From Myxococcota bacterium (GTDB taxonomy: Bacteria > Myxococcota_A > UBA796 > SXON01): 64,000 bases of DNA. Positions 8,879-46,977 of this stretch are shown in pieces (position 1 is the stretch's first letter; every line of letters starts with the position of its first letter). Made by a program: the position numbers and the translations under genes. The notes beneath the pieces are model-generated. The model was not told the DNA's origin. It saw only the letters and a program-made list of their open reading frames with translations, and ran no database searches. The stretch is taken from positions 19,817 to 83,816 of the forward strand of contig JAZKFH010000055.1 in the NCBI GenBank assembly GCA_040386535.1, in the 5' to 3' direction.

Positions 8879-11800
8879 TCACCCCACCCCAACCACCACC
8901 TCGTCCTGCACCGTCGCCCCTCCACGAGCAAGCAGCTCGGCAAGGCCGTGCTCCATCGCGGTGATCACGCCCGACCCGAGGCGATGCAGCTCGAAGATGC
9001 GCGCGCCCGCGCGGTGGAGGTCGGCGGCGGGCAGCGAGACCTCGCGCAGGAGAACGTAGGCCATCGCATTGGCCACCTCCTCGGGAGGGAGTTCGTCTGC
9101 GTCACGACGCGTTCCGTCCTCCGCCGCCCCGCGAACCGTCGGCCAGGTGCGGGGATCCTGGTCGGGCCGCCACAAGAAGCCGCCGCGCCGGATCACCTCT
9201 CGTCGGGTCACCATGCCGCGCAAAACCTGGTCCAGCGTGCCGTTCAGCCGCGCGCCGGTCCGCGCGAAGCCCCACGCGGCTGCGACGCGACGGAAAGTCG
9301 CGCCGCCGTCCACTGGCGCCTCTACGCTAACGATCTGGAGGATCTGCGCCCTGATCCGCTCGGGCGAGGCGTGAAAGTCACCGGTCACCGCGGGCAGGGT
9401 GGCACGCACCCAGGGCACCGGGGTGTGCGGGCCCGGGGCGGAGGCCGAGAGCGTGGGCGTCGAGACCCCTGGGGACGGCGCCGGCAGGGCCCAGGGAGGC
9501 GGGACCGGGGCGGGCGGTGCGGGGACCGGCGGCAGTGGGACCTCGCCGGCCTCGGCGCGCGCTAGCGCATCGAGCAGGCGCTGTGACTCGTGGTCCCGGG
9601 ACTGCAACCAATCGAGCGTCCAGACGCGATGCAAGTGTACCCAGCCGAGCCCGCGAAGCACTTCCTGTCGCAGCCGATCGCGCTCGCGGGCCGTACGGAG
9701 CGAGTGGTAGCCCGGTCCGTCGATCTGCACGCCGAGCAGAAAGCTGCGCCCATCGGGGGCGAGCACGGCAACGTCGACGCGTTGGCCGGACCGGCCGACG
9801 TCGAGCCGCACCGCGCAGCCGTGGGCGCGCAGCACCGCGGCGACGTCGGCGGCGATCGCGGTGGGCTCGACGGCGCCCGGCTGGTCCACGCCGGCGAGAT
9901 CGCTCGTCACGTAGGCCAGGAAGCGCCTCAGGTCGTGCACGCCCGCGGCCTGGGTGCGGCCGAGGTCGATCTGCTCGGGCCGTAGGGAGGTGTAGACGAT
10001 CAACTCCTGTCGGGCGCGGGTGACCGCCACGTTGAGCCGCCGCTCGCCCCCCTCGAGGTTGAGCGGCCCGAAGTTCATCGCGATCGCACCGGTGGCATCG
10101 GGCCCGTAGCAGATCGAGAAGAGGATGGTGTCCCGCTCGTCGCCCTGTACGTTCTCGAGGTTTTTGACGAACACCGGTTCGGCGGTGCTCGCGCCGAAGT
10201 GGCTTTCGATCTCGGGCGAGCTACGCCGCGCCTGGTCGAGCAGGTCCTCGATGAGCGCCTGCTGTGGCAGGCTGAAGGTCACGATGCCGAAGCTGCGATC
10301 GGCGGGCGCTGCCAGCCGGAGCCGTGCCACCAGGGCCGCGACGAGCGTCTCCGCCTCCCGTCGATTCGTGCGGGTGGCCGCCCTGTCGTAGACTCCGTCG
10401 ACCACGTGTACGCCGTGTACGCCCAGCCCGGGCTCCGCTCGGCGCGCGCTCGGGAAGGTGCAGAGCCGCCCTTCGTAATAGGCGCCGTTGGAGAACGCGA
10501 TGAGCGACTCATGGCGGCTGCGGTAGTGCCAGAGCAGCGAGCGCTGGGGGATGCCGGCGGCGATCGCCTCGTCGAGCACGCTCTCGAGCTCCGCGGGCGT
10601 GTCCTCGTCGCCTGTCTGGTCGGGCGCCTCCACCTGGCGGCGGAAGAAGGAGGTGGGCGGGAGCTGCCGCGAGTCGCCTACAATGATCGCCTGGGTGCCC
10701 CGCGCGAGCGCGCCGATTGCGTCCTGGGTACAGATTTGTGATGCCTCGTCGAATACGACGAGGTCGAACCTCATCTTCCCGGCCGGCAGATATTGGGCGA
10801 CCGACAGCGGGCTCATCAGCAGGCAGGGCTTGAGACGCCCGAGCAGGTTCGGGATGCCCGCGAGCAGCGCACGGATGGGCACGTGGGCCCGCTGTTTGCG
10901 GGTCTCCCGGAGCAGGAAAGCCACCTCCGAGCCCTGGCTCGCGTTGCCGTCGGCGATGCCGTCCGGGCGGCGCGCTGCGACGGTCTGCGCGACGAACCGT
11001 TGGGCCAGCGCCATCAGCGCACGATCCTCAGCAGCGAAGCGGTCGGCGAACCGGTCGCGTGAGGTGGTGGCGAAGCCGCGGAGCGCCGCGTCGCCGGCGA
11101 TCGTGTGTTCGAGCCAGCGCTCGGCCCGCGCTCGCATGAATGTGGCCGAGAGCCCGGACGCGCTCACCGCCGCGACCCGGTGCGCGTGGACAGCGTCGGC
11201 ACTGCCCGTGTCGACAGCGCGGCCCGCCGCGCGCTGGTAGGCGATCCAATCGTTGAGCCGGGCTAGGTCGCCGAGTCGGGCCGCATCCGTGGTCGGCGGC
11301 CGCCGCACCAGGCGGTCTAGCGCGATGACGAGCCCATCGAGGTGACCGGGATCGCCCGCGGGCGGCCAGGGCGAGGGTGCGAACGGGAGCCGTGCCTCCA
11401 GGCCGGCGAGCGCGACTTCGTACGCGGCCAGGGCGCCCTGCGCCGCCACGACCACCGGACCGAGCTGCGCCCGGCCGCGCGCAGTCCATGCCTCCATCGC
11501 CGGCAGCTCCGCGTGCAGAGCGCGGGCGTGTTCGATCCAGGCGAGTACTACGCCGATACGGGTGGATTCGTCGGGGACGAGCGCTCCGGCAGTTTCGGGC
11601 GCACCGCCCGGAAATGTGTGGCACCACCACTTCGACAGCTGGTCGACTTCCGCCGTCTCCTTCTCGAGCGCGAGCGCGGTGGCGAGGTCTGTGGCGATCT
11701 GGCGATCCGGGGGCAGCGCACCGACGCAGGCGCGTCGCACGACGGCGCGGGCCCCGTAGAGCAGAAAGAACCTGAACAACGGGACGGTGCCGGCCCACCG

Positions 11801-14413
11801 TGCGAATCGGCCAGCAAGCCGAGCGAGCGGCAGCTGTGTTAGTACGGGGAGGTAGCGCTGACCGAGGTCGGCACGGGCCTCTCGCCGCCGGACCAGCGCT
11901 TCTGCCAGCCGATGCGCTGCCGTCCGCGCGGCGGGGAAGCCGGGGTCAGCAACGGCGCCGCCGGCGACCTCGGCGTCGAGCGGTACCGGGGTCGCCGCGT
12001 GAGCGCCGAGCCGTGTCATCCGCTCGATGGCGCTCGGGTCGCCGGTCGACGCGACGCCGAGCGCCCGGGAGAGCGCCTCGCCGGCTGCCCCGAGCGTCTC
12101 GGCCGCGTGGCGCAGGGTGTCGACGGCCGCGACCGCCTCGACGGTATCGCGTGGTGTCCACGCGCTGAGGATGTCGGCGTGCGGGCAGAGCGCGCGCCAC
12201 GGATGTACACCGACCGGCTCGACCCGCGCACCGGCCTCCACGAGGTCGGCGATGGCGTCGGCCGCAGCCCTCGCGGCTTCTGGCGAGGTGGCCGGCGGGA
12301 TGCGCCAGGCTGTCGCGGGCGCGTCGCGCAGATCGAGCAGGGCGGCGCAGACCGCGAACACGCTGTCTCCGGACGGGCGGGCACGGTGCAAGGCGGCAGC
12401 GTGCGCGTCGAGCGCTCCGGCGAGCGTCGTGACCGAGCGGGTCGCGGCCTCGTAGAACCCGCCGGCGCCCGGCTCGCCGCGGCGCATGGCGGCGGCGAAC
12501 TGTTGCGTCACGGCGCGCTTGTTGGCCTTGTTGGAGTGCAGCTCCAGGCAGGCGTCGCCCACGCCCGCCTGATCGAGCCGGCGCTGCACCACCTCGAGCG
12601 CGGCGAGCTTCTCGGCGACGAAGAGTACGGTCCTGCCACCGGCGAGGGCGGTGGCGATGATGTTGGCGATGGTCTGCGACTTGCCCGTGCCCGGCGGCCC
12701 CTGCAACACGAAGGAGCGCCCCTCGGCGGCGGCGCGAACGGCGTCGAGCTGGCTCTGGTCGGCGTCCAGCACCAGCGGCAGGTGCGTCGGCGCGAGCTGG
12801 CCGGTGTGGCGCGCTGCGGTCGGATCGCCGAGCGCGAGCAGACGCAGCACCGGGCTCTCCAGCAGCACCGCGGCGTTGTCGTTCAGGTCCCGCCATAGGG
12901 TGAAGCGCGAGAAGGTGAAGGGGCCGAGCCAGGCCTGCTCGCGCACCTCCCACCCCGACTGCGCCGCAATGGCGGCGCGGACACGCGCGCAGATCCAGGC
13001 GACGTCGATGCCGCTGCCGTCCGCGGGCGGGTCGAGCAGCGCGCTGACGTCGATGCCGAAGTCCCGCGCGAGCTTCTCCACGAGCGCGTGGTTGGGGAGG
13101 GGATCCTCGTCGCTTCGGCGCAGCTGCCAGGGCGCTCCGGCGCGCGCCTGCTCGAGCCGGGCCGGGTACAAGATCAACGGAGCGAGCCGAACTTCGCTCC
13201 CAGGTCGCTCACGCCACGCGAGCGCGCCCACGGCGCAGAACAGGATGTTGAAGCCTGCGTCCTCGATGGCGATACGAGCGTTTCGGGCAAGTGTCACCAG
13301 CCGGCGATCGAGCTCGGTCGTCGTCAGGGAACACTGTACCCACCCTTTGCGCAGTGCGTCCGCCTGGGCGGCCTCGGCCTCGGCGACATCGAGGGTCTTG
13401 GCTCGCGGCTGTTGGCCCACGAGACGTAGCGAGGTACCGCGGGCCAGCATGTCCTCGAACGCGCCGAGGTCGGTCTGGTCGAGGCAGACGAGGCTGCGGC
13501 CGTCGGCACGGAAATGCAGCAGACGGTTGCGGAGGGAGAGGTCGAGAAGCAGGTCCCGCCACCGGTCGATGCGGGGCACGGGGCCGCCGCCGTCCAGCAG
13601 GGCGGCGAGCAGCTGGGTGGCGTCGGCGGGCCGGGCGAGGGGATCGACGCTGAGAGCCGAACGCAGCACTCGCCGAACGGCGACCGGCGCGTCGGGCACG
13701 TGGCGCTCGATGGGGATGTGTCGGCCGTCGGCGACCGCGACATAGACGTCCATGTCGGTCTCACCCTCGAAGGGCAGCCGGCCGCTGACCAACTCGTACA
13801 GCATCACGCCGAGCGACCAGACATCGGAGCGCGCATCGACCGAGGACGGATCGCGCAGCTGCTCGGGGCTCATGTACGCGGGCGTTCCCATGCGGGTGCC
13901 GACGCGCGTACGGGCTGGGCCGGCTTCGGCGGGGCGCCCGATCTTTGCGATCCCGAAGTCTACGAGCATGGGCCGCGGCCCCGCCGGCCCGAGCTCGATG
14001 AGCACGTTGGCGGGCTTCAGATCACGGTGCACCACGCCGCGGTCGTGGACCGTCCCCACCACCGCGAGCAGCGCACGGAACAGGCCAAGCCGCGCCGCGA
14101 CGTTCACCCCCTCGGCCCACACGTCCAGGGTGTCGCCGGGCACGCGGCGCATCACGAAGCCGGCCACGCCCGGCTCCACCACGATGTCGGTCACCTCGAC
14201 GACACCGGGCAGGCGGATCGTCGCGAGCAGGCGTGCCTCGTCGAGGAACCGGCGCCGCACCTCGACGTTCACCACGTGCTCCGGGCGCAGCACCTTCAGC
14301 GCGCCTGGTGCCCCGAGAACGTGGTGGCGCACGGCGTACACGATGGACATCCCGCCTTCGCCGAGCAAGCCCTCGACGACGTAGGCGCCGACGATGTCTC
14401 CGATCGCGAGCAT
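8879..14413 (-). CDS. Ser/Thr kinase fused to a DUF4011-like region, an Upf1-like SF1 helicase, a restriction-endonuclease-like domain and a DUF3320-like tail (1844 aa)
   Basis: Kinase: 'GLLGEGGMSIVY', 'VVHRDLKPANVLI', 'LVDFGIAK', 'GTPAYMSPEQ'. Helicase: Walker A 'LQGPPGTGKSQT' (nt 12680-12700), Walker B 'LVVFDEASQ', 'IIVGDSRQLPP', 'ENVQGDERDTILFS', 'RLNVAVTRARQELIVY'. DUF559/Vsr-like nuclease-fold segment: 'RVDVAVLAPDGRSFLLGVQIDGPGYHSLRTARERDRLRQEVLRGLGW'. Confidence 0.9.
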   Translation of the reverse strand: MLAIGDIVGAYVVEGLLGEGGMSIVYAVRHHVLGAPGALKVLRPEHVVNVEVRRRFLDEARLLATIRLPGVVEVTDIVVEPGVAGFVMRRVPGDTLDVWAEGVNVAARLGLFRALLAVVGTVHDRGVVHRDLKPANVLIELGPAGPRPMLVDFGIAKIGRPAEAGPARTRVGTRMGTPAYMSPEQLRDPSSVDARSDVWSLGVMLYELVSGRLPFEGETDMDVYVAVADGRHIPIERHVPDAPVAVRRVLRSALSVDPLARPADATQLLAALLDGGGPVPRIDRWRDLLLDLSLRNRLLHFRADGRSLVCLDQTDLGAFEDMLARGTSLRLVGQQPRAKTLDVAEAEAAQADALRKGWVQCSLTTTELDRRLVTLARNARIAIEDAGFNILFCAVGALAWRERPGSEVRLAPLILYPARLEQARAGAPWQLRRSDEDPLPNHALVEKLARDFGIDVSALLDPPADGSGIDVAWICARVRAAIAAQSGWEVREQAWLGPFTFSRFTLWRDLNDNAAVLLESPVLRLLALGDPTAARHTGQLAPTHLPLVLDADQSQLDAVRAAAEGRSFVLQGPPGTGKSQTIANIIATALAGGRTVLFVAEKLAALEVVQRRLDQAGVGDACLELHSNKANKRAVTQQFAAAMRRGEPGAGGFYEAATRSVTTLAGALDAHAAALHRARPSGDSVFAVCAALLDLRDAPATAWRIPPATSPEAARAAADAIADLVEAGARVEPVGVHPWRALCPHADILSAWTPRDTVEAVAAVDTLRHAAETLGAAGEALSRALGVASTGDPSAIERMTRLGAHAATPVPLDAEVAGGAVADPGFPAARTAAHRLAEALVRRREARADLGQRYLPVLTQLPLARLAGRFARWAGTVPLFRFFLLYGARAVVRRACVGALPPDRQIATDLATALALEKETAEVDQLSKWWCHTFPGGAPETAGALVPDESTRIGVVLAWIEHARALHAELPAMEAWTARGRAQLGPVVVAAQGALAAYEVALAGLEARLPFAPSPWPPAGDPGHLDGLVIALDRLVRRPPTTDAARLGDLARLNDWIAYQRAAGRAVDTGSADAVHAHRVAAVSASGLSATFMRARAERWLEHTIAGDAALRGFATTSRDRFADRFAAEDRALMALAQRFVAQTVAARRPDGIADGNASQGSEVAFLLRETRKQRAHVPIRALLAGIPNLLGRLKPCLLMSPLSVAQYLPAGKMRFDLVVFDEASQICTQDAIGALARGTQAIIVGDSRQLPPTSFFRRQVEAPDQTGDEDTPAELESVLDEAIAAGIPQRSLLWHYRSRHESLIAFSNGAYYEGRLCTFPSARRAEPGLGVHGVHVVDGVYDRAATRTNRREAETLVAALVARLRLAAPADRSFGIVTFSLPQQALIEDLLDQARRSSPEIESHFGASTAEPVFVKNLENVQGDERDTILFSICYGPDATGAIAMNFGPLNLEGGERRLNVAVTRARQELIVYTSLRPEQIDLGRTQAAGVHDLRRFLAYVTSDLAGVDQPGAVEPTAIAADVAAVLRAHGCAVRLDVGRSGQRVDVAVLAPDGRSFLLGVQIDGPGYHSLRTARERDRLRQEVLRGLGWVHLHRVWTLDWLQSRDHESQRLLDALARAEAGEVPLPPVPAPPAPVPPPWALPAPSPGVSTPTLSASAPGPHTPVPWVRATLPAVTGDFHASPERIRAQILQIVSVEAPVDGGATFRRVAAAWGFARTGARLNGTLDQVLRGMVTRREVIRRGGFLWRPDQDPRTWPTVRGAAEDGTRRDADELPPEEVANAMAYVLLREVSLPAADLHRAGARIFELHRLGSGVITAMEHGLAELLARGGATVQDEVVVGVG

Positions 14414-15091
14414 TGACTACCTGGGAGCGGGGAGAGGTATCTCGACGGAGCGCTCGCTTGGCGTGGACACGGTGCGAGTCTCAGACACGAAGCGCTTCCC
14501 AACGTCGGGCGCGCTGCGTAGCGGGGCGTGTAGAAAGCGGGGGATCGTCGAGGAGGTGGCTGAGCCCCCGTGGGGCTCGTACTGGCCACCGAGGTTGCTC
14601 CTTGGGCCCGATCATGGCGGGCGCACGGTACCACGGGCTGATGGTGGGGCGGGATCGGGCGGAGACGTCGGTATTCATGTGGACTCGCCTCGTACGGACG
14701 GTCGTTCGGGTGCCGCGAGAGGCCCGGCCGCGCCGCGCGCCCCTCAACTCGGAAGGGTCCACCAGGATCAATGTGGACCAGTTGGTGATGATCTTCGGGC
14801 GTTGCGCTCTGGGAAGCCATGCGGCGAGATCAGCCGCATGACCGTACCGGCCGGCTCGCAGCCGCGATCGAAAAATCTCGGGCCCACCGGACGGCGTGCG
14901 GGTGCCCCGCGCGGCGAGGCGGCGCACCGGCTGGCCGCGGACCTGAGGCCGTTTTGGTGGCCGGGGTCGGAGGACATCGCGGGGTCAAGCCGCACCACCG
15001 GACGGAGCTATGGTAGAAGAAGGCACGGCGGTGCGGACCTGCTGGTGATAGCCAGCGATCCATCCGATGAATCTACTTCAGCGAGAATGAC

Positions 15092-16105
15092 ATGAGTGAC
15101 AAGCCCACAGCCGAGTCCGAACTTCAATCTGGTCTGACCGGCAAGCTGCTGGCCGTGTTCGATTCCGGGGTCGAGAGCCGCAGAGGCTTCTACGAGGCCA
15201 ACCCGGACAAGGTGCCGTCGACCCGGGAGATCGATTCGATCATCTCCGCCTGTGCGAACACCAACGCCGTGATTTCAGGTGGACTCAGTCTCCTTCCGGG
15301 CCCGTGGGGACTCGTCGCCATCATCCCGCAGATGGTGTTGGTGATCCAGAATCAGGTCAAGATGATCTACGACATCGGCGTAGCGAGCGGGAAGCAGAGC
15401 GTCCTCACCCGGGAGCTCATCCTGAGCATCGCGCTCTCCGCCTCCGGAGTCAGTGGCATGAGCCTTCTGACCATGCACGGAAGCAAGATCTTGGTGCGGC
15501 GCTCTTCGGTCCGCGTGTTCCAGAAGCTCGTTGCGATGTTCGCCGGCAAGGTCACTCAGCAGGTACTGAAGAAGTCGATTGCCCTGTGGTTACCGATCAT
15601 CGGCGCCGCGGGGATTGCGGTGTGGACCCGCTACAGCACGGCCGAAATCGGACGGAAGGCCAAAGAGATCTTCGCCCACGAAATCGAGATCCTCCCTGAA
15701 GGCGACGCCGATGAGGAGTCTGTCGTAGTTGGGGACGCCGTTGGGACCGCGTCGTCGTTAGAAGCGCTCATGGTCGCCAAGCTTCTTCTGCTCGATGATC
15801 TCATGAAGTGCGACGGCGAAGCGGCGCCTGCGGAACACGCATTCATCAACGAACTGCTCAGTCGCAGCGGACTCGGGCCCGAAAGCCGGATGCTCCTGAT
15901 CAAACGCTTTGATGAGCCGTCCCCCAGAGTGGTGGACCTCGCTCCTTTCCGGGCCGATCGGGACGAGGCGATCGGCCTCCTCATTGACCTCGCGGCCATG
16001 GCCAAGAGGGACGGGAGCCTGAAGGACTCGGAGCGCGCGTTCGTTGTCCGGACCGCGCACGAAGTCGGCCTCGGGGAGAACCAGGTCGCAGCCGCGCTCG
16101 CCTGA
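15092..16105 (+). CDS. EcsC-family domain fused to a TerB-like domain
   Basis: The N-terminal half 'SACANTNAVISGGLSLLPGPWGLVAIIPQMVLVIQNQVKMIYDIGVASG' resembles the EcsC family. The C-terminal half 'LLLLDDLMKCDGEAAPAEHAFINELL...LIDLAAMAKRDGSLKDSERAFV' resembles the TerB/DjlA-N helical repeat. Codon usage is visibly less GC-rich than in flanking genes. Confidence 0.75.
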   Translation: MSDKPTAESELQSGLTGKLLAVFDSGVESRRGFYEANPDKVPSTREIDSIISACANTNAVISGGLSLLPGPWGLVAIIPQMVLVIQNQVKMIYDIGVASGKQSVLTRELILSIALSASGVSGMSLLTMHGSKILVRRSSVRVFQKLVAMFAGKVTQQVLKKSIALWLPIIGAAGIAVWTRYSTAEIGRKAKEIFAHEIEILPEGDADEESVVVGDAVGTASSLEALMVAKLLLLDDLMKCDGEAAPAEHAFINELLSRSGLGPESRMLLIKRFDEPSPRVVDLAPFRADRDEAIGLLIDLAAMAKRDGSLKDSERAFVVRTAHEVGLGENQVAAALA

Positions 16106-16261
16106 CGCACGGAATGCCGGCCGGTAGGCCGGCATTCCGTCGCTTCCAGGTCTTGGCCGTCACGCTGTCGGGGTGGTGGTCCGCCGGAAAGCCTCCTCCG
16201 GACTCGCCGCCAACGTCTCGGGATGACGTTGGTGGGTTAGCCCATCGTGCGCTGAGAACTC

Positions 16262-18436
16262 ATGACCGCATCAACCCTCCCGACCCCTCCCGCGGCCCCG
16301 TCGCCCGCCCCACGCCCGATTATGGCGTCCGCCCGAACCGGCTCCAAGAAGCTCGGGCTTCACGTCACCTGGCGCTACTCCTTCGTGGGGCCAGGGTCCA
16401 CGTTGGCGCCAATTCGTGGGTGTGTATGCCTGGACGTAGGGAACGCGCTGCTGGCGGGCGTGTTGGACACCCATGGGGGCGGCACGCGGGCGGACAGCAC
16501 GGCCCAACTCGTCATCGCCCACCCTGAGCTGGTATACGAGCATCTGCTCGGCGCATACCTGGACCGCGCTGATAACGGTGAGGACCTCTCCGGTAAGGAG
16601 TTCGCGCCCGTCGTGCTCACCCACGTCGCCCCCGATTTTGACGCGGTCGTGGCAACGCTGTTCGTGCAGGCGCTCATCGAGGACGGGGAGCTTCCATGGT
16701 GGGCCCCGGCGCTGGCGGCGTATGCCGCGGAGGTGGATCAGGGGCGGTATCGCCCGCGGGAGGTGCTGGCGCGGGCAGGGAGGGAGCCCACCCCGACAGA
16801 CGTGGCAGCGGCGCTGCTGTCCCCTGTGCATGCCGCCTTCCTGGCCGTCCAGTGGCTCGCGATGGAGGAGAAACGCGACCACGAATGGGCGCTCACCAGC
16901 GGGCTGGCGCTGGTACGCAGGGTGGCCGAGGCGGTGGCAAAAGAGAAGGCAGGAGCGTTGACGGGGTCGAGCTTCTACGCCTTCCAACCGGGTGCTGACG
17001 CCTGGAAGCGAGACCCCGGAAACGCAAAGCTGTCTACGATGCTGGACGAGGAACCCGGGCGATGGAAGGCGGATTTCGAGGACGCCGAGAAGCTGGCAAT
17101 TCCACTACCAGCTACTGATGGCCGGTCCCTCCAAGTCAGCGCGCTGCTCCTCGCGCGCCCTCCCGAGTCGCGACTCAACAAATATTGGGCACGAAGCTTC
17201 GGGTTTGTGTATTTCGTATGTCCCTATGGAGCCGGGGTTGATGGTTCGAATCCCACCTATCCGAAGGTGGTCCTTTCCTTGGATCCGCTATGGGACGACG
17301 CGGGAGCGAAGCCAAGTCTGCTCGGCCTTGGCTTCGCGCTGGAGCGCGAGGAGCGAAAACACCGCGAGGCGCAGGGACGCGATGAGCGCATCCCGATCCC
17401 CCGGTATGCGGACGGCTCCTGCGACAACGACGATCCCTGGTACGACGGGCGCGCCCACGGCCACACCATCGTCGACGCTCCCCGCGAGGGAACCCGGCTT
17501 CCCTACTCGAAAGTCCGGGAGATCGCCTGTTCGCCGTTCTGGGAGCCGCCCATCCATGATGTGAGGATTACCGTCGTTCGCCGCGCATTGGGCGAGACTT
17601 TGCCTCCCCTCTCAGGGAGCAAGCTGGACACCCTGCGTGTCGGGGTCCACGAGGTCGTGACACTTACCCAGACGGTGGTGACCCTCGACGCCCTCGAAAA
17701 GTGGCTGACCGTCGCTATCGAGGCCGGCCATTCTCCCATTCGGGTCGCCGCTCGCCACATCAACCCGTTCTGGCCAGTGGACTCGGTGCTCAACCGGCTG
17801 GCCCGCCGCTTCGGCGCTCCGCACGAGCTCGACGCGCAGTCCGTGTATCTGGGGAGTGGGGTCCTGTGGGCGGTGCCGCGGGAAGGGCAGGTTTCCGGTT
17901 CGGCCGCAAAAGAAGCGGCCTTCGCGGAGGTCGCGCGGCTCGACATCCGATTGGAGGAATTCGCCTTGGAGATGCGCCGCGCGGTCTCCAAACGGCCTGC
18001 CAAGGGCGCACGCGACCGGGTGATCGCCCTCAGGAACCTGGCCATGGGGACCGGGAGAGGCTTGGCCCAACTACGCCGAGATTTCCTCGACTTCCGGGTG
18101 AGTAAGCTCGACACCGCGGATGGCGGGAGCTCGCGCTGGGATCCTGCAGCCATCGCGCTGGCAGAGCGGCTGCGGCTGCGCGAGAGAGCCGAGCACACGA
18201 AGGAGAACCTGGACGAACTGGCGGGCATCGAGGGCCAACTCAACCAGAAGGTGTTCGAGGGCCTCGCCGTGCTGATCGGCGTGGCCGGCGTTGCTCAGAC
18301 CGTCGCGGCCGTGTTCGCCATGTCCGCGGAGCAGCGGACGTCACCCTTCTGGATGATGTTCTGGGGCTTGACGTTGGTTCCCGTCCTCATCGCGATCGGG
18401 TTGATCTGGCGACGGGACGCGGGCACCGGGGGCTGA
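16262..18436 (+). CDS. Hypothetical 724-aa protein with a coiled-coil and two C-terminal transmembrane helices
   Basis: Long ORF with protein-like composition. C-terminal TM helices are 'VFEGLAVLIGVAGVAQTVAAVFAM' and 'FWMMFWGLTLVPVLIAIGLIW'. 'VVLTHVAPDFDAVVATLFVQAL' weakly recalls DHH motif I, but no other DHH motifs were seen. The start is uncertain (ATG-16262 or ATG-16322). Confidence 0.6.
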   Translation: MTASTLPTPPAAPSPAPRPIMASARTGSKKLGLHVTWRYSFVGPGSTLAPIRGCVCLDVGNALLAGVLDTHGGGTRADSTAQLVIAHPELVYEHLLGAYLDRADNGEDLSGKEFAPVVLTHVAPDFDAVVATLFVQALIEDGELPWWAPALAAYAAEVDQGRYRPREVLARAGREPTPTDVAAALLSPVHAAFLAVQWLAMEEKRDHEWALTSGLALVRRVAEAVAKEKAGALTGSSFYAFQPGADAWKRDPGNAKLSTMLDEEPGRWKADFEDAEKLAIPLPATDGRSLQVSALLLARPPESRLNKYWARSFGFVYFVCPYGAGVDGSNPTYPKVVLSLDPLWDDAGAKPSLLGLGFALEREERKHREAQGRDERIPIPRYADGSCDNDDPWYDGRAHGHTIVDAPREGTRLPYSKVREIACSPFWEPPIHDVRITVVRRALGETLPPLSGSKLDTLRVGVHEVVTLTQTVVTLDALEKWLTVAIEAGHSPIRVAARHINPFWPVDSVLNRLARRFGAPHELDAQSVYLGSGVLWAVPREGQVSGSAAKEAAFAEVARLDIRLEEFALEMRRAVSKRPAKGARDRVIALRNLAMGTGRGLAQLRRDFLDFRVSKLDTADGGSSRWDPAAIALAERLRLRERAEHTKENLDELAGIEGQLNQKVFEGLAVLIGVAGVAQTVAAVFAMSAEQRTSPFWMMFWGLTLVPVLIAIGLIWRRDAGTGG

Positions 18437-18463: not shown

Positions 18464-21400
18464 TCAGCTCGCTTCCGGAACCTGCGCTTGCGCGCTGGTG
18501 AGGTGCCGGCTCACGTAGGTGCTCAGCTGGATGACGGCGGAGGTCACGCTCCTGGCCACGCCGTCCGTCCCGAGCTCGTCGATTGTCACGGGAAGGAGCG
18601 CCTCGTATCCGAGAGCTTTCCATTCCGAGTCGGCCAGCGGTGTCCACCCGTGGCCGAGCGCGGGATTGCACGACTCGGCGATCTGTCGGCGTGCCTCGCG
18701 ATATTCGGGGCCCTTGGTCGCGTGGGTGGAGTAGAAGCCGACCACGACCTTCACCTTCTTCCCATACTTCGAGGTAAACCAAATGGAGATCCCGTGGCGG
18801 TCGTCCGCGGGGAGCCACAGCTCGCCGTCGTTGTTTTCGACCAGATCGATCTCCTCGGGCGAGCTGATCTCCCGTGGCGCGTAGTAGAGCTGCTTGGGGA
18901 GCCGCTGGCGCAACTGGCGGAGGAGCACTCGGCCGGCTTCGGGCCAGTCAAGCGCGGGCGCGCCCTGGCCAGCAGCGGTGTGTTCGCTCTCGGCGATGTC
19001 CAGCGGGGTGGCGGCCTGCGGAGTGACAAGCTGGGGGGCAGCTGCCGTGGCCGCCAACGGGGGAGCACCAACTGCGGCGCGCAGCCAGCCCGCGATCGCC
19101 ACGCACGCTGGGTCGACGCGAAGCATTTCGTCGGCGATATTCGGGAACTGCGCCGCCCCGGAGATCTTGGGGTGTCCCGGTGGCAGGTGGAGCGCCGCGG
19201 CCGCTCCCGCCAAGAGCTCCGAGCGCTCCGTGGGAGGCAGCGTGCTCCAGAATCCGACGTTCAGCACGACACCTCCGCTGGAGTATGCGGTCAACAGGGA
19301 CGGCGACCCCGAAGTCGACTTCAGCGTGAAGCTCCCCGACTGTTGTCCGCGACCCCAGGCCTGCTTCAGCCACGCGCTAGCGACCAGGTCGCGACCCACG
19401 TTGAAGAGGGTGCGATGAAGCGCGACAAGCGCCGGTGACAACGCCCGTGTCTCCAGTTCGGCGAAATAGGTGCCTTCATCCCAGGACCGTTTACCCGGCA
19501 CCTCTCCCTTCTGCAGCGACGCCTCGGACCCGGCGACAGAGGCGGCGTCGTCCACCGCCCGTTCGACGAACCTCTCGGCGAGAAACGCGAGCGTGTCCGC
19601 ATCCCTCAACCTGCACGCCGTGAGCGGCGATGCGAACATCCCTGCCTTCGTGATGGCTTCCTCCGACGGGAAGGTGGTCTGCCACCGGATCGCGCGGCCG
19701 TACTCCGCCTCGTCCGCATGCACCATGTCGTTCTTGAGCATCGCAAGGCGTGTAGTGGGGCTGATGCTCTGCTGCGATAGCGGCTGACCATCCTCCGTTA
19801 CGAACGCGTCTAAGCGGACTGCGGTGCCCGTAACGACGGTGCCTAGCCCGACGTACCCCTTGCCGGACTCGTAGGCGTAGACCGTATCTCCCGCCTTCAG
19901 GTTCTCGGCGCACTTTCGGTATCGGACGGCCCCGCCCGCACACCAAAGCCCATGAGTTCGCATGTCCGGCCAGGAGCGCCCGCCAGTGTTCAGGTACCAG
20001 ATGGTTTGCTCTCCCTGGGGGACGGCCGTGAGTGCGGACTCGTCTCCTTCTTCCTCTCGTCCACGAGTCGCCGGGCCCATTGCCGCGACCGAAGACGCGC
20101 CGACGCTCTGGGGAGCGAGCACGCCTTCCTTCGTCCTGGCCTCTTGCGGCGTCCGGAGATTCGGCGCATCATCCCGCGCTTCAAAGCGCAGGGCCATGGA
20201 AATGGGTTTGCCGGCGACGCGGGCCAGCAATTCGACCGCGAGCGCGCAGAGCTTCGAAGCGTTCCAGTTGACGTTTACGTAGCCTCCCGGCACTGGCTTG
20301 TGCGGTTGCTTGAACGGGGTGCGGGAGAGCAGAACGGCGCCGCCGGAAGTTGCGGGTGCGTCGAACGGGAGATGGTACCCGCTTGCCCCGAGGTACTCAA
20401 CGGCCGCCGCGAGCACTTCGTTGTAGTGCCTGATGGGAAGAGATGGGGCATCGCCGATCTGCACCGCCTTCAGCGGCGGGCGATCGGTGAGATCAACCGG
20501 CCAGGCCTCCCAGATGGGGGGCGCAGCGCTCGGAACCGAGCGAGCGGTCTGCCCGTGCTCGGAGGCTTCCGGGCGCCCGGGTGCAACCTCGGCTTCGGTT
20601 GGCGCCGCTGGCCTCCCGATTGGGGGGACCGGGTGTGCCTGAGTCGAGTGCGCCGCGAGGTATCGTCCGTGCATCTCCGATACGTCTTCTTCGTTCAACC
20701 CGAGCAGCGCGCGGATGCCGTCGAGCCGTTCCCGCTCGGCGGAAGAAACCCCCTCGAGGGCGGCGAGGTCTAGGACACGCTCGTAGACCTCCTTCGCCCG
20801 AACCTGGACGGACACAGCCGCTGGGGAGCTGGGGGAGGGGTCCCGCGGCCACGGCGTCGCGTTGTAGTTGAATGGAAAGAGGCGGTCACCACGACGCTTT
20901 CCGGTCAATTTGACGAGGTACTCTCCCTTGTCGAACCACTCGCGAAAGACTGCGGTGACCTTCACCGGATTCTCGTATTGGGCCTGGCACTCCATTTGGA
21001 AGGTACCATCAGTGGCCCGGGTGGCCGGTGCGCCCGGCGTCACCCAGACGTATCTGGTGAGCGTTTCCAGCACCTTGGGGCTGCTCAAAACCTCGGCCAG
21101 CGCCGGAAGCAGAACCCCGGCGATGGCAGTGTTGAGATCGTCGTCCTCCGCAGGGAAGTTCTTCTCGACGGAGTGAGAAACGTGGTTGCGATAGGCGAGC
21201 ACGTGCCCGAAGAACTCGTCGAGGCTCAGCTTGCCCTGGTCCTTTTCGGCCAGCTTCGCGGCGAGTCCGCCGACGACCTTGCCAGGAGGACGGCCAGAGG
21301 CGATCTGGTCGGACAGGTAGCACCAGGCGCGCCCGAAGAGCGCTGCCTTGGGGAGCGACTCGGAGGCCACCCTGACACGCATGTCGAGGTCGAGCACACC

Positions 21401-21715
21401 AGCCCCGCGTTCCCCGAAGTCTTGGTCCGCAAGCGCCCGGAGGAGGGTGAGCCAGTGCCCCATGGAGGCCTTGTCGTTCGTGGCGCGGATGGCCCGCTCC
21501 ACGGTCTCCACCTTGGCGTCGCTCGCGACGTAGTCCCACCATCCCATCCAGGAGAGGTACTGGAGGGTGACGAAGGACGCCCGCATCGCCTGCCAGTTCT
21601 TGCGGCGAGCCTCCGTAGCGTTGGTGATCTCTCGAATCTCGACCGCGATCGGCTTGGGAAGAGTTTGCTTGTCGAGGAGCAATTCAAGCGGATCCGGCTG
21701 ATCGTCAATGTCCAT
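18464..21715 (-). CDS. Large multidomain protein: N-terminal HEPN domain, central EVE/PUA-like domain, uncharacterised C-terminal region (1083 aa)
   Basis: The start is taken at ATG-21715 ('MDIDDQPDPLELL'); the ORF's upstream 91 codons are Arg/Trp-rich junk. HEPN: 'SMGHWLTLLRAL' followed by the Rx4H motif 'AYRNHVSH' (nt 21173-21190, checked on the DNA). PUA/EVE-like: 'TIWYLNTGGRSWPDMRTHGLWCAGG..NLKAGDTVYAYESGKGYVGLGTVV' (about nt 19570-20008). Confidence 0.75.
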   Translation of the reverse strand: MDIDDQPDPLELLLDKQTLPKPIAVEIREITNATEARRKNWQAMRASFVTLQYLSWMGWWDYVASDAKVETVERAIRATNDKASMGHWLTLLRALADQDFGERGAGVLDLDMRVRVASESLPKAALFGRAWCYLSDQIASGRPPGKVVGGLAAKLAEKDQGKLSLDEFFGHVLAYRNHVSHSVEKNFPAEDDDLNTAIAGVLLPALAEVLSSPKVLETLTRYVWVTPGAPATRATDGTFQMECQAQYENPVKVTAVFREWFDKGEYLVKLTGKRRGDRLFPFNYNATPWPRDPSPSSPAAVSVQVRAKEVYERVLDLAALEGVSSAERERLDGIRALLGLNEEDVSEMHGRYLAAHSTQAHPVPPIGRPAAPTEAEVAPGRPEASEHGQTARSVPSAAPPIWEAWPVDLTDRPPLKAVQIGDAPSLPIRHYNEVLAAAVEYLGASGYHLPFDAPATSGGAVLLSRTPFKQPHKPVPGGYVNVNWNASKLCALAVELLARVAGKPISMALRFEARDDAPNLRTPQEARTKEGVLAPQSVGASSVAAMGPATRGREEEGDESALTAVPQGEQTIWYLNTGGRSWPDMRTHGLWCAGGAVRYRKCAENLKAGDTVYAYESGKGYVGLGTVVTGTAVRLDAFVTEDGQPLSQQSISPTTRLAMLKNDMVHADEAEYGRAIRWQTTFPSEEAITKAGMFASPLTACRLRDADTLAFLAERFVERAVDDAASVAGSEASLQKGEVPGKRSWDEGTYFAELETRALSPALVALHRTLFNVGRDLVASAWLKQAWGRGQQSGSFTLKSTSGSPSLLTAYSSGGVVLNVGFWSTLPPTERSELLAGAAAALHLPPGHPKISGAAQFPNIADEMLRVDPACVAIAGWLRAAVGAPPLAATAAAPQLVTPQAATPLDIAESEHTAAGQGAPALDWPEAGRVLLRQLRQRLPKQLYYAPREISSPEEIDLVENNDGELWLPADDRHGISIWFTSKYGKKVKVVVGFYSTHATKGPEYREARRQIAESCNPALGHGWTPLADSEWKALGYEALLPVTIDELGTDGVARSVTSAVIQLSTYVSRHLTSAQAQVPEAS

Positions 21716-21791: not shown

Positions 21792-23756
21792 TTATCGAAC
21801 GATGGGCGTGATCCGCACCGGCGCATCCGGCTCCGGGATCGCCATGCCTTCCTCCACCCCCTCCTCCACCCCCAACTCAACGTCCCCCTCCGCCGGCCCG
21901 GCGACCTCCGCCTCCACCGCCGTGACCACCCCCGCCTCCTCCTGCAACCGCAGGATCGTGCCGTCGGCGACCATGGCGCGGAGCGCATCGTCGACCCGTT
22001 GTTTCAACGCCTCGTTACCAAGCTGCATGGCGATGCCGTACCGGTCGCGCGCGATGGGCGGGCCGGTGACACGCCAGCCCTCGGAGAGCTGGCCGGCCTC
22101 GATGGTGTCGAGGACGACAACGTCGGCGCTGCCGGCCTCGACGGCGGCGGTCGCCTTGGCGGTGGATGTGACGTCGACGAGGATGCAGGGGGTCGTTGCC
22201 ACCATGGGCGCATAGATCGCGTGGGCGGCGGCGCAGCGGACGGCGAACCAAGTGGGGTCGGGGTCGGGGCGGTCGCGGGGCACGAGCGCCCGCACCTCAG
22301 GCTCCAGGTAGGGGATCGAGTAGAGCTGCTCGAGCTCGCGTTCGGGCGTGATCGAGATGGCGCCAATTGCGAGGTCGACCTCGCCGCGGCTGGCCCGGGT
22401 ACGGACGTTGCCCGCGTGATCGAAGCGCACGCCCTGTTTGCCGAGCCGGCGGGCAAGCTCCTGGGCGAGGCGAACGTCGAAGCCGGTGGGCTCGGCGCCG
22501 GCGGTAAAGTCGAACATCGGCGGGAGCCTGGTCCCGATGGCGACGATCAGCTCGGGATCCTCGCCGGATGCCCGGAAGGGGGAGACAGGGCGCGGGGCAA
22601 CGTCGCGTTCAGCGGCCTCGACGACAGGGGCGGAGGCCGGCCGAGGAGCGTCGTGGCTATCCAACCACACAACCCAACAAATCACCGCCGCGAGGGCCAA
22701 CCCGCCGAGCATCAGCAGCGTGGTGAAGCAGCTCCACAGGGTAGCGAAGAAGCCGCGGCCCTCCCGCTTGGGCGGCGAAGTAGACGCGACCGCGGGCACG
22801 ATCTTGGCCGGCGCCGATGGCGGCGGTGCGGGCGGGGCCGTGGCCCCAGCGCGTGGTGCCTTGGCCGCCGGAGGCGGGATGGGTGAAGCGGCAGGCTTCA
22901 TCGGCGCACCCGAGATTCCGAGCGCGAACGCCTCACACCCAGGAAACCGCGCTTCCCGCTTGACCGCCAGCGCGCGCGCGATCGCCGCCGCCAAGACCGG
23001 GTCCGCCGCCACCAACGCCGCGGGCACCGTGACATCGCCCGTCACGATGGCGTTCATCGTGTCGAACTCGTTGTCGCGCGCGAACGCGGGAGTCAGCGTC
23101 GCGACCTCGAAGAGCACGGCGCCGAGGGAGAACACGTCGGAGCGGGCGTCCACGTCGTGGGCCGAGCGGACCTGCTCCGGGCTCATGTACGCGTACGTGC
23201 CCATCTGGCCGCCCGCGACCGTCGAGTGGTTGTTGGCCCTCGCAAGCTCGCCGCGCACCTTCGCGACGCCGAAATCCACCACGTAGGGGAACAACGCGCC
23301 GCCCGGTCGCGCCACCAGCAGCACGTTTTCAGGCTTGATGTCCCGGTGCACGACGCCGCGTTCGTGCGCATACGCCATGGCATCGAGCAGGGGGAGGGCG
23401 ATGGCCCGGACGGTGACCCCCGTGGGCGGTCCCGATCCGGAGGCCACGCGGGCGGCGATCCAATCCGCGAGCGTGCCACCACGGACCAGATCCATGACGA
23501 TACCGGCGGCGCCGGGCTCGGAGAGGATGTCGGTGACGCGCACGATGTTCGGGTGCTGGAGCTGGGCCTGCACGCGCGCTTCGTCGAGGAAGCGGCCCCG
23601 GATCTCGGGGCTGGTCACCCGTTCGGCACGCAGGAACTTGATGGCGTGCTCGCTCCCGAGCGTGACGTGGCGGGCGCGGTACACCTCCGCGAACGCGCCC
23701 CCGCCCAGAAGCTCCAGCACCTCGTACGTGCCGTACCTTTCGCCGGGAGCCGGCAC
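21792..23756 (-). CDS. Ser/Thr protein kinase with a transmembrane helix and an extracytoplasmic SBP_bac_3-type solute-binding domain
   Basis: Kinase: 'LLGGGAFAEVY', 'VVHRDIKPENVLL', 'VVDFGVAK', 'GTYAYMSPEQ'. TM: 'LLMLGGLALAAVICWVVWL'. SBP_bac_3-like: 'GFDVRLAQELARRLG..GEVDLAIGAISITPERE..YSIPYLE'. GTG-23756 directly abuts the stop of the upstream gene (23757-23759). Confidence 0.9.
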   Translation of the reverse strand: MPAPGERYGTYEVLELLGGGAFAEVYRARHVTLGSEHAIKFLRAERVTSPEIRGRFLDEARVQAQLQHPNIVRVTDILSEPGAAGIVMDLVRGGTLADWIAARVASGSGPPTGVTVRAIALPLLDAMAYAHERGVVHRDIKPENVLLVARPGGALFPYVVDFGVAKVRGELARANNHSTVAGGQMGTYAYMSPEQVRSAHDVDARSDVFSLGAVLFEVATLTPAFARDNEFDTMNAIVTGDVTVPAALVAADPVLAAAIARALAVKREARFPGCEAFALGISGAPMKPAASPIPPPAAKAPRAGATAPPAPPPSAPAKIVPAVASTSPPKREGRGFFATLWSCFTTLLMLGGLALAAVICWVVWLDSHDAPRPASAPVVEAAERDVAPRPVSPFRASGEDPELIVAIGTRLPPMFDFTAGAEPTGFDVRLAQELARRLGKQGVRFDHAGNVRTRASRGEVDLAIGAISITPERELEQLYSIPYLEPEVRALVPRDRPDPDPTWFAVRCAAAHAIYAPMVATTPCILVDVTSTAKATAAVEAGSADVVVLDTIEAGQLSEGWRVTGPPIARDRYGIAMQLGNEALKQRVDDALRAMVADGTILRLQEEAGVVTAVEAEVAGPAEGDVELGVEEGVEEGMAIPEPDAPVRITPIVR

Positions 23757-26543
23757 CTACGCCCCCAAGAGCCGCAGAACGCCGCTCTTGTCGGGCCCTT
23801 GCGCCAGCACGTCCGCGGGGGTGCACCGGGGACACCCATGGTCACACGGGCACCCCTGGAGCAGGCGCCGCACCCAGACGAGGGCGTTGTCGACCACGTC
23901 GGCGTCGAGGGCCTCGGCCATGCCCATGCCGCCGACGTAACGGTCCACTGCCACGATGCCGGCGGGGAGCTCGCCGTGGAGGCCAGCGTCGACGGGGATG
24001 ACGTGGACGTCGTCGTCGCCGGCGAGCAGGTGCACGAGGAGCACATGGTCGAGGCACGCGGCGAGGTGGCGGCGCGCGGGGAGGGCGGAGGGCTGGGGGA
24101 AGAACACGCCGCGTGCCCGGGTGCGGTAGCGGCTGGTGACGGGAGCGTAGGCGACCGAGCCCTCGCCGACGCGGATGCCGGCGACGGTCTCCAGCACGTC
24201 CACGTCGAACGAGGCGAGCGTGTAGACGCGGCGCTCCCTGCGGACGGTATGGGGGTCCTCGACCACGACGGCGTCGCGCACGGCCACGGCGAGCGCCGGG
24301 CTGGTCATGGCGCGGTCGGGCGCCACGCGGTTGACGTCCACGCGGTTGCGCTTGGCGTCGAAGGCGTGGAGGGGCACCTCGTACCGGAGGTCGCAGTCCG
24401 CGAACACGCGCTGGGGGTAGAAGCGGGTCTCGACGACCGCGCGATCGCAGCGTCCGAGGAGGCGCCCGTCGTTCCGATCACGGATCTCGACCACGTCCTC
24501 GGTGACCGTGTCGCGCAGGGTCCCGTCGAGGTCCCCGGTCTGGGCCGGCGCCAGCGCGACGCGCCAGAGGCCTTCGCGCGAGGGAGTACGTCGCAACACG
24601 AAGGCGTCGGCCTCCGCGGTGGGGTGCGCGTACTGGTCGGTGAGGGAGCGGCCGAAGAGCCCGGACAGCGAGTCGATGTCCTGGCGGCCCTCGCGCAACG
24701 CGGCGACGAGGTGGGTACGCGCGAGGTGCGTGTTGGCATAGCCGACGAGGGGGCGCGGCGCGGGGAGGCGGCCCTGGGCGGCGGAGGCGCGCAGGTTGTC
24801 GGGCCCGGTGAGGAGCCGGGTGATGGGGCTCGTGGGCCAGGCCCAGAGCGCGTGGTGGGTGCCGCCGTGTTCGAGGGGGAGGCGGTTCGCCAAGGTGCGC
24901 CACGCGCCGACGAGCCAGGTCTCGTCAAGCTGGCTGATGGATGCGTCCCCGCCGAGCGTGGCGCCACGATGCAGGCGTACGTCGGCCCCCCATACCTGCA
25001 CGCCGGCGTCGAACGCGCCGGTGGGATCGCCCACGGCGACGGCGAGCGCGCGCTGGGCGAGAGGCTCGGCGGCGCGGCGGGGCCAGGGGTCCCCTGGCTT
25101 CGTGACGAAGCGCTCGGCGGCGGGCCAGACCTTCACGGCCGCGGAGGAGCGGGGCGCGAACGGGACGGCGGAGACGCGGATGGGGGGGAAGAGCCTCTCC
25201 ACGAGGCCGATGGTGCCCGAGCCGCCGAGGCCGGTAGCGAGGACCGAGAAGCGCGCGCCGGCGGCGCCAAGCGCAAGCGCGAGACGACGGAGCGTGAAGA
25301 AGCGGTGGGTGGCGACGAGTGGCGAGCCGCGGTCGACCTGGGAGAGGACGACGAGGCCGACGGTGCGTGCCCACGGGACGCCGTCGCCGACGGTGCTGTT
25401 CCAGAGGGCGCGGATGCCACGCGAGGAGAGCTCGTTCGTGTCGAGGAACGCCACGGCTGGCATGCGGCGCTGGCCGAGGGCGAGCCGGAGTTCCTCCTCG
25501 CCGACGACGAGCGGACCGCCGCTCCAAGCGCCGCTCAGCACGAGGGCCGCAGCGACCGTTTCGCGGAGGACGCGTGGCTGCTCAGTTACGACGAGGCAGG
25601 GGATGCCGGCGCCCTGGGCCGCGAGGAGGATGCTCGCCGCGAGGAAGGTGGCCTCGGTGGGATCGGGGAGATCGCCCACGAGCCAGCCCTGGCCGGGCTT
25701 GTCCGCGAGGCGCGCGATCTGCTCCAGCGCGAGCGGGGGCGCTCCGATGGCGCCGACGTGCCGCCACGCGTCGGCCGCGAAGCCGGGCCCGCCGGCGCCG
25801 CGGACGGCGGGGATCTCCATGAGGGGAGGTGCGGCTACGTCGAGCGCTCCTCGCTCGCGCCAAAGCGCCGGGATGTCGACGCGGTCGGGGCGGAACGCCT
25901 CGACCTCGGCTTCAGGTGCGGCGGCTGGGGGGAGGGCGCGTCCGGCCAGGGTCCAGATGGCGAGGCAGGCCATCGCGACGGGGAGGAGGGCCGCGCCGTC
26001 GAGCAGGACGCGTGTGGCGGGCTGGATCTGGCCGACGACGTAGGCGTGGTCGAGCCCGAGGAGGGTGAGGAGCGTCGCGACGACGACGACGATCCCGGCC
26101 GGCCCGGCGAGGGGGATGCGGAAGGCGGGCCGGCCCTCGTCCCCGCGGAGCCGGAAGGCGGCGATGGCCGCGAAAGGGACGACAAGCGAGCCATTGAACG
26201 CCGCGAGCGGAAAGACGAGGTCGGCGGGGAGCGTCCTGGTGAGATCGAGGGCCACCGGCGCGCCGGGAACCGCGGGGACCGCGACCGGCCCGTTCACCCA
26301 GGCGGCGAAGGACACGATCCACGCGGCGGGATCGGCGCCGGAGCCGGTCACGAGCCCGAGGAGCCGGGCGAGGACGGCCCACCCGAGGAGCACGGGGACG
26401 GCCCAGCCGAGGGCGATGGCGGCGCGGCGGGCGCGGGTGCCCGGGCCGACAATCAGCATCGCCGTGAGCCACGCGAGCAACGGCCCGCCGATCGCTATCA
26501 GGCCGAGCAGGGCCTTGCCCCAGCCGGGGAGGGAGAAGGCCAT
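23757..26543 (-). CDS. Polytopic membrane protein with an apparently inactivated MrfA/YprA-type helicase core and a C-terminal DUF1998 zinc-finger domain
   Basis: ATG-26543 ('MAFSLPGWGKALLGLIAIGG') overlaps the upstream stop by 1 nt (TAATG). The N-terminal ~270 aa contain several hydrophobic helices. 'GDLPDPTEATFLAASILL' sits where motif I (GSGKT) is expected. 'VGLVVLSQVDRGSPLVATHRFFTLRRLALAL' sits where 'DExH..G..G.H.....RRL' is expected. The C-terminus 'GCPCDHGCPRCT' is the DUF1998 Cys cluster. The 5' 312 codons of ORF 23757-27479 are Arg/Pro junk that overlaps the upstream gene. Confidence 0.75.
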   Translation of the reverse strand: MAFSLPGWGKALLGLIAIGGPLLAWLTAMLIVGPGTRARRAAIALGWAVPVLLGWAVLARLLGLVTGSGADPAAWIVSFAAWVNGPVAVPAVPGAPVALDLTRTLPADLVFPLAAFNGSLVVPFAAIAAFRLRGDEGRPAFRIPLAGPAGIVVVVATLLTLLGLDHAYVVGQIQPATRVLLDGAALLPVAMACLAIWTLAGRALPPAAAPEAEVEAFRPDRVDIPALWRERGALDVAAPPLMEIPAVRGAGGPGFAADAWRHVGAIGAPPLALEQIARLADKPGQGWLVGDLPDPTEATFLAASILLAAQGAGIPCLVVTEQPRVLRETVAAALVLSGAWSGGPLVVGEEELRLALGQRRMPAVAFLDTNELSSRGIRALWNSTVGDGVPWARTVGLVVLSQVDRGSPLVATHRFFTLRRLALALGAAGARFSVLATGLGGSGTIGLVERLFPPIRVSAVPFAPRSSAAVKVWPAAERFVTKPGDPWPRRAAEPLAQRALAVAVGDPTGAFDAGVQVWGADVRLHRGATLGGDASISQLDETWLVGAWRTLANRLPLEHGGTHHALWAWPTSPITRLLTGPDNLRASAAQGRLPAPRPLVGYANTHLARTHLVAALREGRQDIDSLSGLFGRSLTDQYAHPTAEADAFVLRRTPSREGLWRVALAPAQTGDLDGTLRDTVTEDVVEIRDRNDGRLLGRCDRAVVETRFYPQRVFADCDLRYEVPLHAFDAKRNRVDVNRVAPDRAMTSPALAVAVRDAVVVEDPHTVRRERRVYTLASFDVDVLETVAGIRVGEGSVAYAPVTSRYRTRARGVFFPQPSALPARRHLAACLDHVLLVHLLAGDDDVHVIPVDAGLHGELPAGIVAVDRYVGGMGMAEALDADVVDNALVWVRRLLQGCPCDHGCPRCTPADVLAQGPDKSGVLRLLGA

Positions 26544-46966: not shown

Positions 46967-46977
46967 TGGGGGAGGGG

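Follow-up and report, generated by a model that had tools for sequence, protein, structure and literature searches.

HEPN RNases are metal-independent endoribonucleases, usually dimeric, and domains that read modified phage DNA (EVE, SRA, and the like) are, to our knowledge, nearly always coupled to DNases. The logic of joining a reader to a nuclease, like the use of HEPN as a suicide effector, is already known. PDC-S11, a modification-dependent, type IV-like defence protein of E. coli ECOR34 renamed "Madara" in a September 2026 preprint, is reported to restrict phage T4 carrying glucosyl-hydroxymethylcytosine (glucosyl-hmC) and not T4 with unmodified cytosine, and its C-terminal domain, modelled with AlphaFold 3 (AF3), was described as "distantly resembling an EVE fold" (bioRxiv 10.64898/2026.09.05.749240). 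A 2020 census of EVE domains by Bell et al. lists PD-(D/E)XK, HNH, PLD, GIY-YIG, McrB, and GmrSD as partners and does not mention HEPN (PMC7641849). The AbiJ, AbiD/F, ApeA-type, and HEPN-DUF499/Hma proteins combine an Rx4-6H HEPN domain with variable recognition domains and are predicted to act as suicide RNases (PMC3710099, PMC12839542), and the HEPN RNases of the McrBC-derived CoCoNuT systems of types II and III are predicted to target RNA (PMC11090510). Here, we describe a gene, hereafter the target, on the minus strand of a 64,000-nucleotide (nt) stretch of contig JAZKFH010000055.1 from a Myxococcota bacterium (assembly GCA_040386535.1), the whole of which is called the window. As judged from sequence, and with moderate confidence, its product of 1083 amino acids (aa) is a modular conflict protein, probably anti-phage, in which a HEPN-like effector is combined with EVE-like, D3, and D4 binding modules and which has a probable partner encoded next to it. 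Its predicted function is probably that of a modification-sensing abortive-infection protein of HEPN type, probably forming one half of a two-gene module.

The target protein is a mosaic of four independently distributed main modules, namely the N-domain, the EVE-like domain, D3, and D4 (Table 1), as mapped with HMMER in a homologue set obtained by an exhaustive search of 1.84 billion representative proteins (441 matches); module counts refer to the 151 proteins examined. No other protein among these carries all four modules, and the combination of N-domain and EVE-like domain recurs in P0002, P0008, P0011, P0012, and P0041. A preliminary description of this DNA had recognized the HEPN-like and EVE-like parts, the former probable and the latter supported by our analysis, and had overlooked the conserved D3 and D4. 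Scans of the target with Pfam, NCBIfam, and PHROGs gave no family match and revealed no nuclease family anywhere in the protein, an exact look-up returned no record, and word-index homology searches retrieved only the target itself in one case and only P0121 in another. Two genome-collection scans and one metagenome scan likewise yielded no relatives. In the libraries and literature searched, we find no description of D3, D4, or the partner family, nor of the HEPN-like clade and its joining to an EVE-like domain of Madara type. In the poorly conserved region that precedes the EVE-like domain, the alignment of P0019 runs to aa 499 and those of P0041, P0011, and P0008 begin at aa 503-534.

The central domain provides the link to Madara. 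Residues 571-716 match two PADLOC models of PDC-S11 (PDLC04916, E=2e-28; PDLC04915, E=1.4e-13), and the EVE-like domain of the target is homologous to the C-terminal EVE-like domain of Madara, with which it presumably shares a common logic, that of a modified-phage-DNA reader fused to a nuclease-type effector. Madara, however, measures about 360 aa, and its N-terminal part is a NucS-like PD-(D/E)XK DNase, which the target lacks (the match to PDLC04916 is confined to HMM, or hidden Markov model, positions 208-354 of 358). In its place the target has the HEPN-like N-domain, accompanied by three additional domains and by a gene that probably encodes a partner. C-terminal EVE-like domains of this family also occur in the GmrSD-family type IV enzymes P0105, P0112, and P0061, where the effector is the GmrSD_N/GmrSD_C DNase (PF03235, PF07510), neither half of which is present in the target. 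In other homologues it is fused to KAP NTPase or AAA_15/21 domains, which, like GmrSD, are typical defence partners. Searches for GmrSD_C/HNH, the McrC PD-(D/E)XK domain, and the McrB GTPase (Pfam, NCBIfam, PADLOC) found none of them in the target or in the 724-aa protein encoded next to it. Pfam EVE gave sub-threshold matches in 4 of 24 relatives (best E 2.2e-4), and PDB entry 2eve was matched at E=1.5. The PDC-S11 match, the sub-threshold Pfam EVE matches in relatives, and the GmrSD fusions support the proposal, first made from the peptide IWYLNTGG (19979-20002) and its surroundings, that this is an EVE/PUA-like domain, which we regard as a putative reader of modified nucleic acid.

The N-domain is N-terminal in all 24 of its carriers. 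Its homologues fall into group A (the target, P0003, P0006, P0015, P0019, P0032, P0059, P0100, and P0121), group B (P0002, P0004, P0014, P0021, P0023, P0027, P0068, P0086, P0087, and P0151), and group C (P0008, P0011, P0012, and P0041). On profile-profile comparison with hhalign these groups form one rare superfamily (group A versus B, probability 99.3%, E=2.4e-20; group A versus C, probability 99.0%, E=6.7e-18). In the 9-sequence family alignment (A1), R176, N177, and H181 are all invariant, and in a 19-sequence superfamily alignment (A6) the invariant positions are P20, G86, R176, N177, L202, and L210. The histidine of the superfamily stands at +5 from the arginine, except in P0068, P0086, P0087, and P0151, where it stands at +6; this conforms to Rx4-6H and matches the variability of HEPN domains in this spacing. 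Since a bare Rx4H occurs 567 times in the six-frame open reading frame (ORF) translations of the window, that motif alone is uninformative; RNxxxH is rare, with 8 occurrences, and it is conservation in the two alignments that lends the motif its weight.

AlphaFold2 (AF2) models were made of aa 1-300 and aa 720-1083. In the former, which has a predicted local distance difference test score (pLDDT) of 81.5 and a predicted template modelling (TM) score of 0.83, R176 and N177 lie at the end of helix 165-180 and H181 starts the loop toward helix 192-210. Anantharaman et al. place the HEPN motif where core helix 3 of a four-helix bundle ends and the loop leading to helix 4 begins (PMC3710099), and the modelled placement in the N-domain, as judged from secondary structure, fits this position. 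The direct matches of the N-domain to known HEPNs were all below threshold. Pfam HEPN_Apea gave a sub-threshold match on the motif region in 2 of 9 members (in P0003, residues 164-209 aligned to profile positions 84-130 of 136, with 14.4 bits versus a cut-off of 24.4), and a PADLOC CARF-HEPN model was matched below threshold in one of the nine (E=0.017). When the superfamily profile was compared with the PDB, three of the six matches were HEPN RNases aligned on their catalytic motifs, including Cas13b (6DTD, E=0.032, sub-threshold, both HEPN motifs aligned) and Csx1-Crn2 (residues 389-428, spanning R401 and H406, E=1.5-2, sub-threshold). Cas13b and Csx1/Csm6 are the best PDB matches of the profile and align on their catalytic R-N-x3-H helices; the similarity, however, is sub-threshold and covers only about 40 residues, and the target has neither a crRNA-binding nor a CARF domain. 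The small beta domain that completes the N-domain has its modelled strands within aa 222-269 and gave weak local Foldseek matches to DUF1093, SSB, and ribosomal protein S12 (E>=0.4).

That the N-domain belongs to the HEPN superfamily, as the preliminary description had asserted of the N-terminal part, is probable though not proven, and we hold it with fair assurance: the invariant R-N, the histidine at +5 or +6, the placement at a helix end, and the weak HEPN matches speak for it, but no profile or Foldseek match is significant. The target resembles the HEPN proteins of abortive-infection (Abi) and other defence systems in joining a HEPN-like domain to sensor modules, and its best Pfam similarity, weak as it is, is to HEPN_Apea on the motif helix. 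It differs from them in that the HEPN-like domain is N-terminal and is followed by a conserved beta domain, with the EVE-like domain, D3, and D4 placed C-terminally, and in that no match to them is significant. With the CoCoNuT systems it shares the concept of coupling restriction-like recognition to a HEPN RNase rather than to a DNase, but those are multi-gene systems with an McrB GTPase, McrC, and coiled-coil helicases, none of which occurs in the target or its partner.

The region downstream of the EVE-like domain (model of aa 720-1083, pLDDT 84.8) is predicted to form two compact alpha/beta domains. D3 has a pLDDT around 90, and phmmer matches to it span aa 727-891; D4 has a pLDDT above 90 and is duplicated in some carriers. 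Relatives of D3 and D4 gave scattered single Pfam matches and no family, the PDB profile search produced nothing meaningful for either domain, and Foldseek found no significant match of the joint model in the PDB. The best local Foldseek matches of D4 were VecA (probability 0.96, TM-score 0.47-0.50), DR_1245, and SicP, all with E>=0.08, a weak resemblance to chaperones of type III secretion. No catalytic signature of conserved acidic residues or lysines can be seen. The two domains are mostly found together with the N-domain (6 of 9 carriers of D3 and 15 of 26 carriers of D4) and are best read as family-specific cognate recognition or regulatory modules.

The gene convergent with the target encodes a 724-aa protein with no match in Pfam, NCBIfam, PADLOC, or PHROGs and nothing meaningful in a PDB profile search. 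Homologues of this gene lie directly upstream of N-domain genes, on the same strand, at three other independent loci (L008, L011/L012, and L014; Table 1), and because of this recurring adjacency we regard it as probably a functional partner of the target. Among the invariant, His/Asp-rich motifs of its family are TH..PDFDA.VA and CDN.DPWYDGR....I.D.PR.GT, and the protein in the window has two hydrophobic segments at its C-terminus. A DHH-phosphoesterase reading of TH..PDFDA was rejected, because the motif order is at odds with it and there was no family match. The recurrence of the partner beside divergent N-domain groups, the invariance of its TH..PDFDA and CDN.DPWYDGR motifs, the hydrophobic segments at its C-terminus, and the want of a significant HEPN match in the N-domain would all suit a different division of labour, in which the target is only a sensor or adaptor, the N-domain is a non-catalytic helical scaffold or binding module, and the neighbour is the real effector, such as a membrane-acting or phosphoesterase-type toxin. 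We consider this unlikely: among 11 further independent loci examined, seven (L001, L003, L004, L006, L009, L013, and L015) have no partner, yet R-N and the histidine at +5 or +6 are kept in all family members, and this retention without the partner argues that the N-domain has a catalytic role of its own. Furthermore, the weak matches of the N-domain all point to HEPN active sites, and the partner matches no known effector family.

The same seven loci, together with the position of the neighbour on the opposite strand in the window, favour the preliminary view of a self-contained, single-chain HEPN and EVE sensor-effector, for which the 724-aa gene would merely be a co-traveller in the island. 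Against this view stands the adjacency of two rare families at four independent loci, with reading frames that overlap by 14 nt at L011 and by 8 nt at L014, and as a full account of the system we find it improbable. The part of it that survives is the presence of an EVE-like domain and a probable HEPN-like domain on one chain; D3, D4, and the recurring partner gene were missing from it.

According to the interpretation that we favour, that of a HEPN-like effector steered by binding modules, the constant N-terminal part of about 300 residues, most likely a divergent HEPN RNase, would serve as the toxic effector, and the variable C-terminal part would supply the EVE-like, D3, and D4 binding modules. 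The EVE-like module would recognize modified nucleic acid of an invader, with D3 and D4 contributing further recognition, autoinhibition, or oligomerization. Once recognition has occurred, the HEPN-like domains, which would probably act as a dimer, would be licensed for RNA cleavage, and this cleavage would arrest the infected cell, resulting in abortive infection; the 724-aa partner is expected to cooperate with the target. Several observations weigh against this interpretation. The matches of the N-domain to known HEPN families all lie below curated or conventional thresholds, and there is no HEPN protein among the top 50 Foldseek matches of its model (PDB, BFVD), none of which is significant. 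Pfam EVE (PF01878) scores 14.6-14.7 bits on the target versus a gathering cut-off of 23 (E about 0.03), and the PUA-like fold of the central domain is a prediction from sequence. A pattern scan of 185,579 reference genomes returned no relatives. Finally, the partner is missing from the seven loci named above, and in the window the 724-aa gene is convergent with the target and not co-directional.

A cellular role has also been weighed, in which the target would be a housekeeping or regulatory RNA-processing factor and its EVE-like domain would read modified cellular RNA such as tRNA. Some EVE domains are indeed linked to RNA and tRNA contexts (PMC7641849), and HEPN RNases are also active in RNA processing (PMC3710099). 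We nevertheless rate this as very improbable, given that the family is extremely sparse and patchy (without a relative in the reference genomes scanned), that its architectures are shuffled and its neighbourhoods variable, that the target has a lower GC content at third codon positions (GC3) than the upstream flanking genes, and that the EVE-like domain has its closest characterized relative in an anti-phage protein. The favoured reading, that of a conflict protein, is consistent with surroundings rich in conflict genes, which include a PDC-S37/Hhe-like gene and kinase, MZB, Tubulin_2, and VWA genes.

If the recurrent fusion of Madara-type EVE-like and HEPN-like domains is what it appears to be, the sensing of modification can trigger an abortive, RNA-directed response. 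A bolder version, which we offer only tentatively and with some doubt, is a hitherto undescribed two-gene immune system in which an EVE-like reader of hypermodified phage DNA switches on a new clade of HEPN RNase alongside a partner that belongs to a new family and is associated with the membrane. In that event, modification-dependent "restriction" would be executed on RNA or on the membrane and not on DNA, and the folds of D3 and D4 would be new ones for sensing or regulation. The analysis also defines four uncharacterized modules (the N-domain clade, D3, D4, and the partner family) without a Pfam, PADLOC, or PDB relative, as well as the residues R176, N177, and H181 as candidates for mutation.

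Table 1. Features of the target, of other genes in the window, and of loci elsewhere at which the partner family adjoins an N-domain gene (positions are those of the window).
Feature	Residues or length	Position	Strand	Remarks
Target gene	1083 aa	18464..21715	minus	ATG at 21715, stop codon 18464-18466; from ORF list and translation
N-domain	about aa 9-290			carried by 24/151 proteins
N-terminal helical domain, HEPN-like, putative RNase effector	aa 17-221	21053..21667	minus	
R176-N177-x3-H181 motif (Rx4H)	aa 176-181	21173..21190	minus	
Small beta domain, possibly OB-like	aa 222-290	20846..21052	minus	conserved across the superfamily
Helical linker	aa 305-356	20648..20803	minus	conserved in group A and other homologues
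Poorly conserved region before the EVE-like domain	aa 412-520	20156..20482	minus	no family match
EVE-like domain	aa 570-717	19565..20008	minus	carried by 121/151 proteins
D3	aa 741-891	19043..19495	minus	carried by 9/151 proteins
D4	aa 912-1077	18485..18982	minus	carried by 26/151 proteins
Probable partner gene	724 aa	16262..18436	plus	convergent with the target, 27-nt gap
Kinase protein	581 aa	6590..8335	minus	ends 10.1 kb from the target
Partner homologue at L008, beside P0032 (group A)	793 aa			33-nt gap; versus the 724-aa protein, 32% identity, E=8e-51
Partner homologue at L011/L012, beside P0008 (group C)	744 aa			14-nt overlap; versus the 724-aa protein, 41% identity over 437 aa, E=7e-92
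Partner homologue at L014, beside P0011 (group C)	at least 699 aa (contig end)			8-nt overlap; versus the 724-aa protein, 39% identity, E=5e-59

The extent of the target gene agrees with the preliminary description. The ORF is open on the minus strand up to 21988, but the kinase/SBP_bac_3 gene upstream of it ends at 21792, and P0005, a metagenome fragment with 78% identity to the target, also has MDIDDQ as its first residues and aligns from residue 1; the end of the upstream gene and the start of P0005 together place the start at 21715, leaving 1083 aa and a gap of 76 nt. The peptides on which the preliminary description had relied were all located as quoted, with SMGHWLTLLRAL at 21431-21466 and FFGHVLAYRNHVSH at 21173-21214 (giving R176 and H181) in the target, and FGMAGAHKVFTLLRGL at 6812-6859 and FWVNALRNRAVH at 6698-6733 in the kinase protein.

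These peptides had been taken to indicate that the HEPN domain of the target is paralogous to one in the kinase protein, a claim that none of our comparisons supports. Although the two-part pattern is found only in the target and the kinase protein among the ORF translations of the window, a hexamer common to two stretches of about 150 aa and chosen post hoc is not improbable by chance, and the shared TLLR.L consists of target-specific residues, not of the family-conserved G86-x-W88. BLASTP of the target N-domain versus the kinase C-terminus gave E=3.5, the family HMM with all filters off (--max) did not match the kinase protein among 571 window ORFs, and hhalign of the N-domain profiles versus the kinase C-terminus returned probabilities of 0.18% and 0.34%. 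The C-terminus itself had no homologues in a word-index search and no Pfam or PDB match. The protein is a Ser/Thr kinase whose last 160 aa or so form a tail that terminates in LRNRAVH, and this arrangement recalls Ire1/RNase L.

The proposal that the target was acquired separately from the tubulin-like operon upstream of it is plausible: the composition of the target (GC 0.661, GC3 0.80) is unlike that of the upstream kinase/SBP and MZB genes (GC 0.71-0.75, GC3 0.84-0.88), and the conserved partner lies on its other side. The convergent genes at 15092..18436 have a GC3 of 0.79-0.80, the same as the target. Upstream of the target, a same-strand run on the minus strand (21792..36466) comprises the kinase/SBP_bac_3 gene, a 1240-aa protein with an MZB (MrfA Zn-binding) C-terminus, Tubulin_2 (1110 aa), VWA, and Kelch genes; one or more of the listed starts must be wrong, since 23757..27479 and 26543..28936 overlap. 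A cluster of Ser/Thr kinase ORFs occupies 40518..50478, together with an SBP_bac_3 gene at 42623..43753. The group A member P0006 at L001 also precedes kinase and SBP genes, which share 54% and 68% identity with window positions 45710-47605 and 42623-43753, respectively, a similarity that suggests a related host organism. A functional link between the target and the upstream kinase-SBP gene was judged weak, because the genes at the P0006 locus are orthologous to other kinase/SBP genes of the window, which holds at least 8 kinase ORFs.

On the other side, a minus-strand gene at 8879..14413 encodes a 1844-aa protein with kinase, DUF4011, AAA_11/AAA_12 helicase, MTES_1575 restriction endonuclease, and DUF3320 domains (PADLOC PDC-S37, E=0; Hhe); the homologue P0100 likewise has DUF3320 after its N-domain. 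The 233-aa ORF at 14394..15095 (plus strand) is probably not a gene, or has a different start, because its codon-position GC is flat (0.675, 0.658, 0.684), whereas real genes here have a GC3 of about 0.8-0.9. The next ORF (15092..16105) carries a TerB domain. The linker of the target at aa 305-356 is a helical hairpin conserved across the family, whose pattern DG..S..E...L......GL recalls one TerB repeat; a TerB-like nature was dropped, the similarity to the TerB protein of the window not being significant (E=4.2). At L013, a 177-aa Macro-domain gene (6082..6615) follows P0002 (N-domain, D4, and EVE-like domain) after a gap of 4 nt and may represent an alternative partner.

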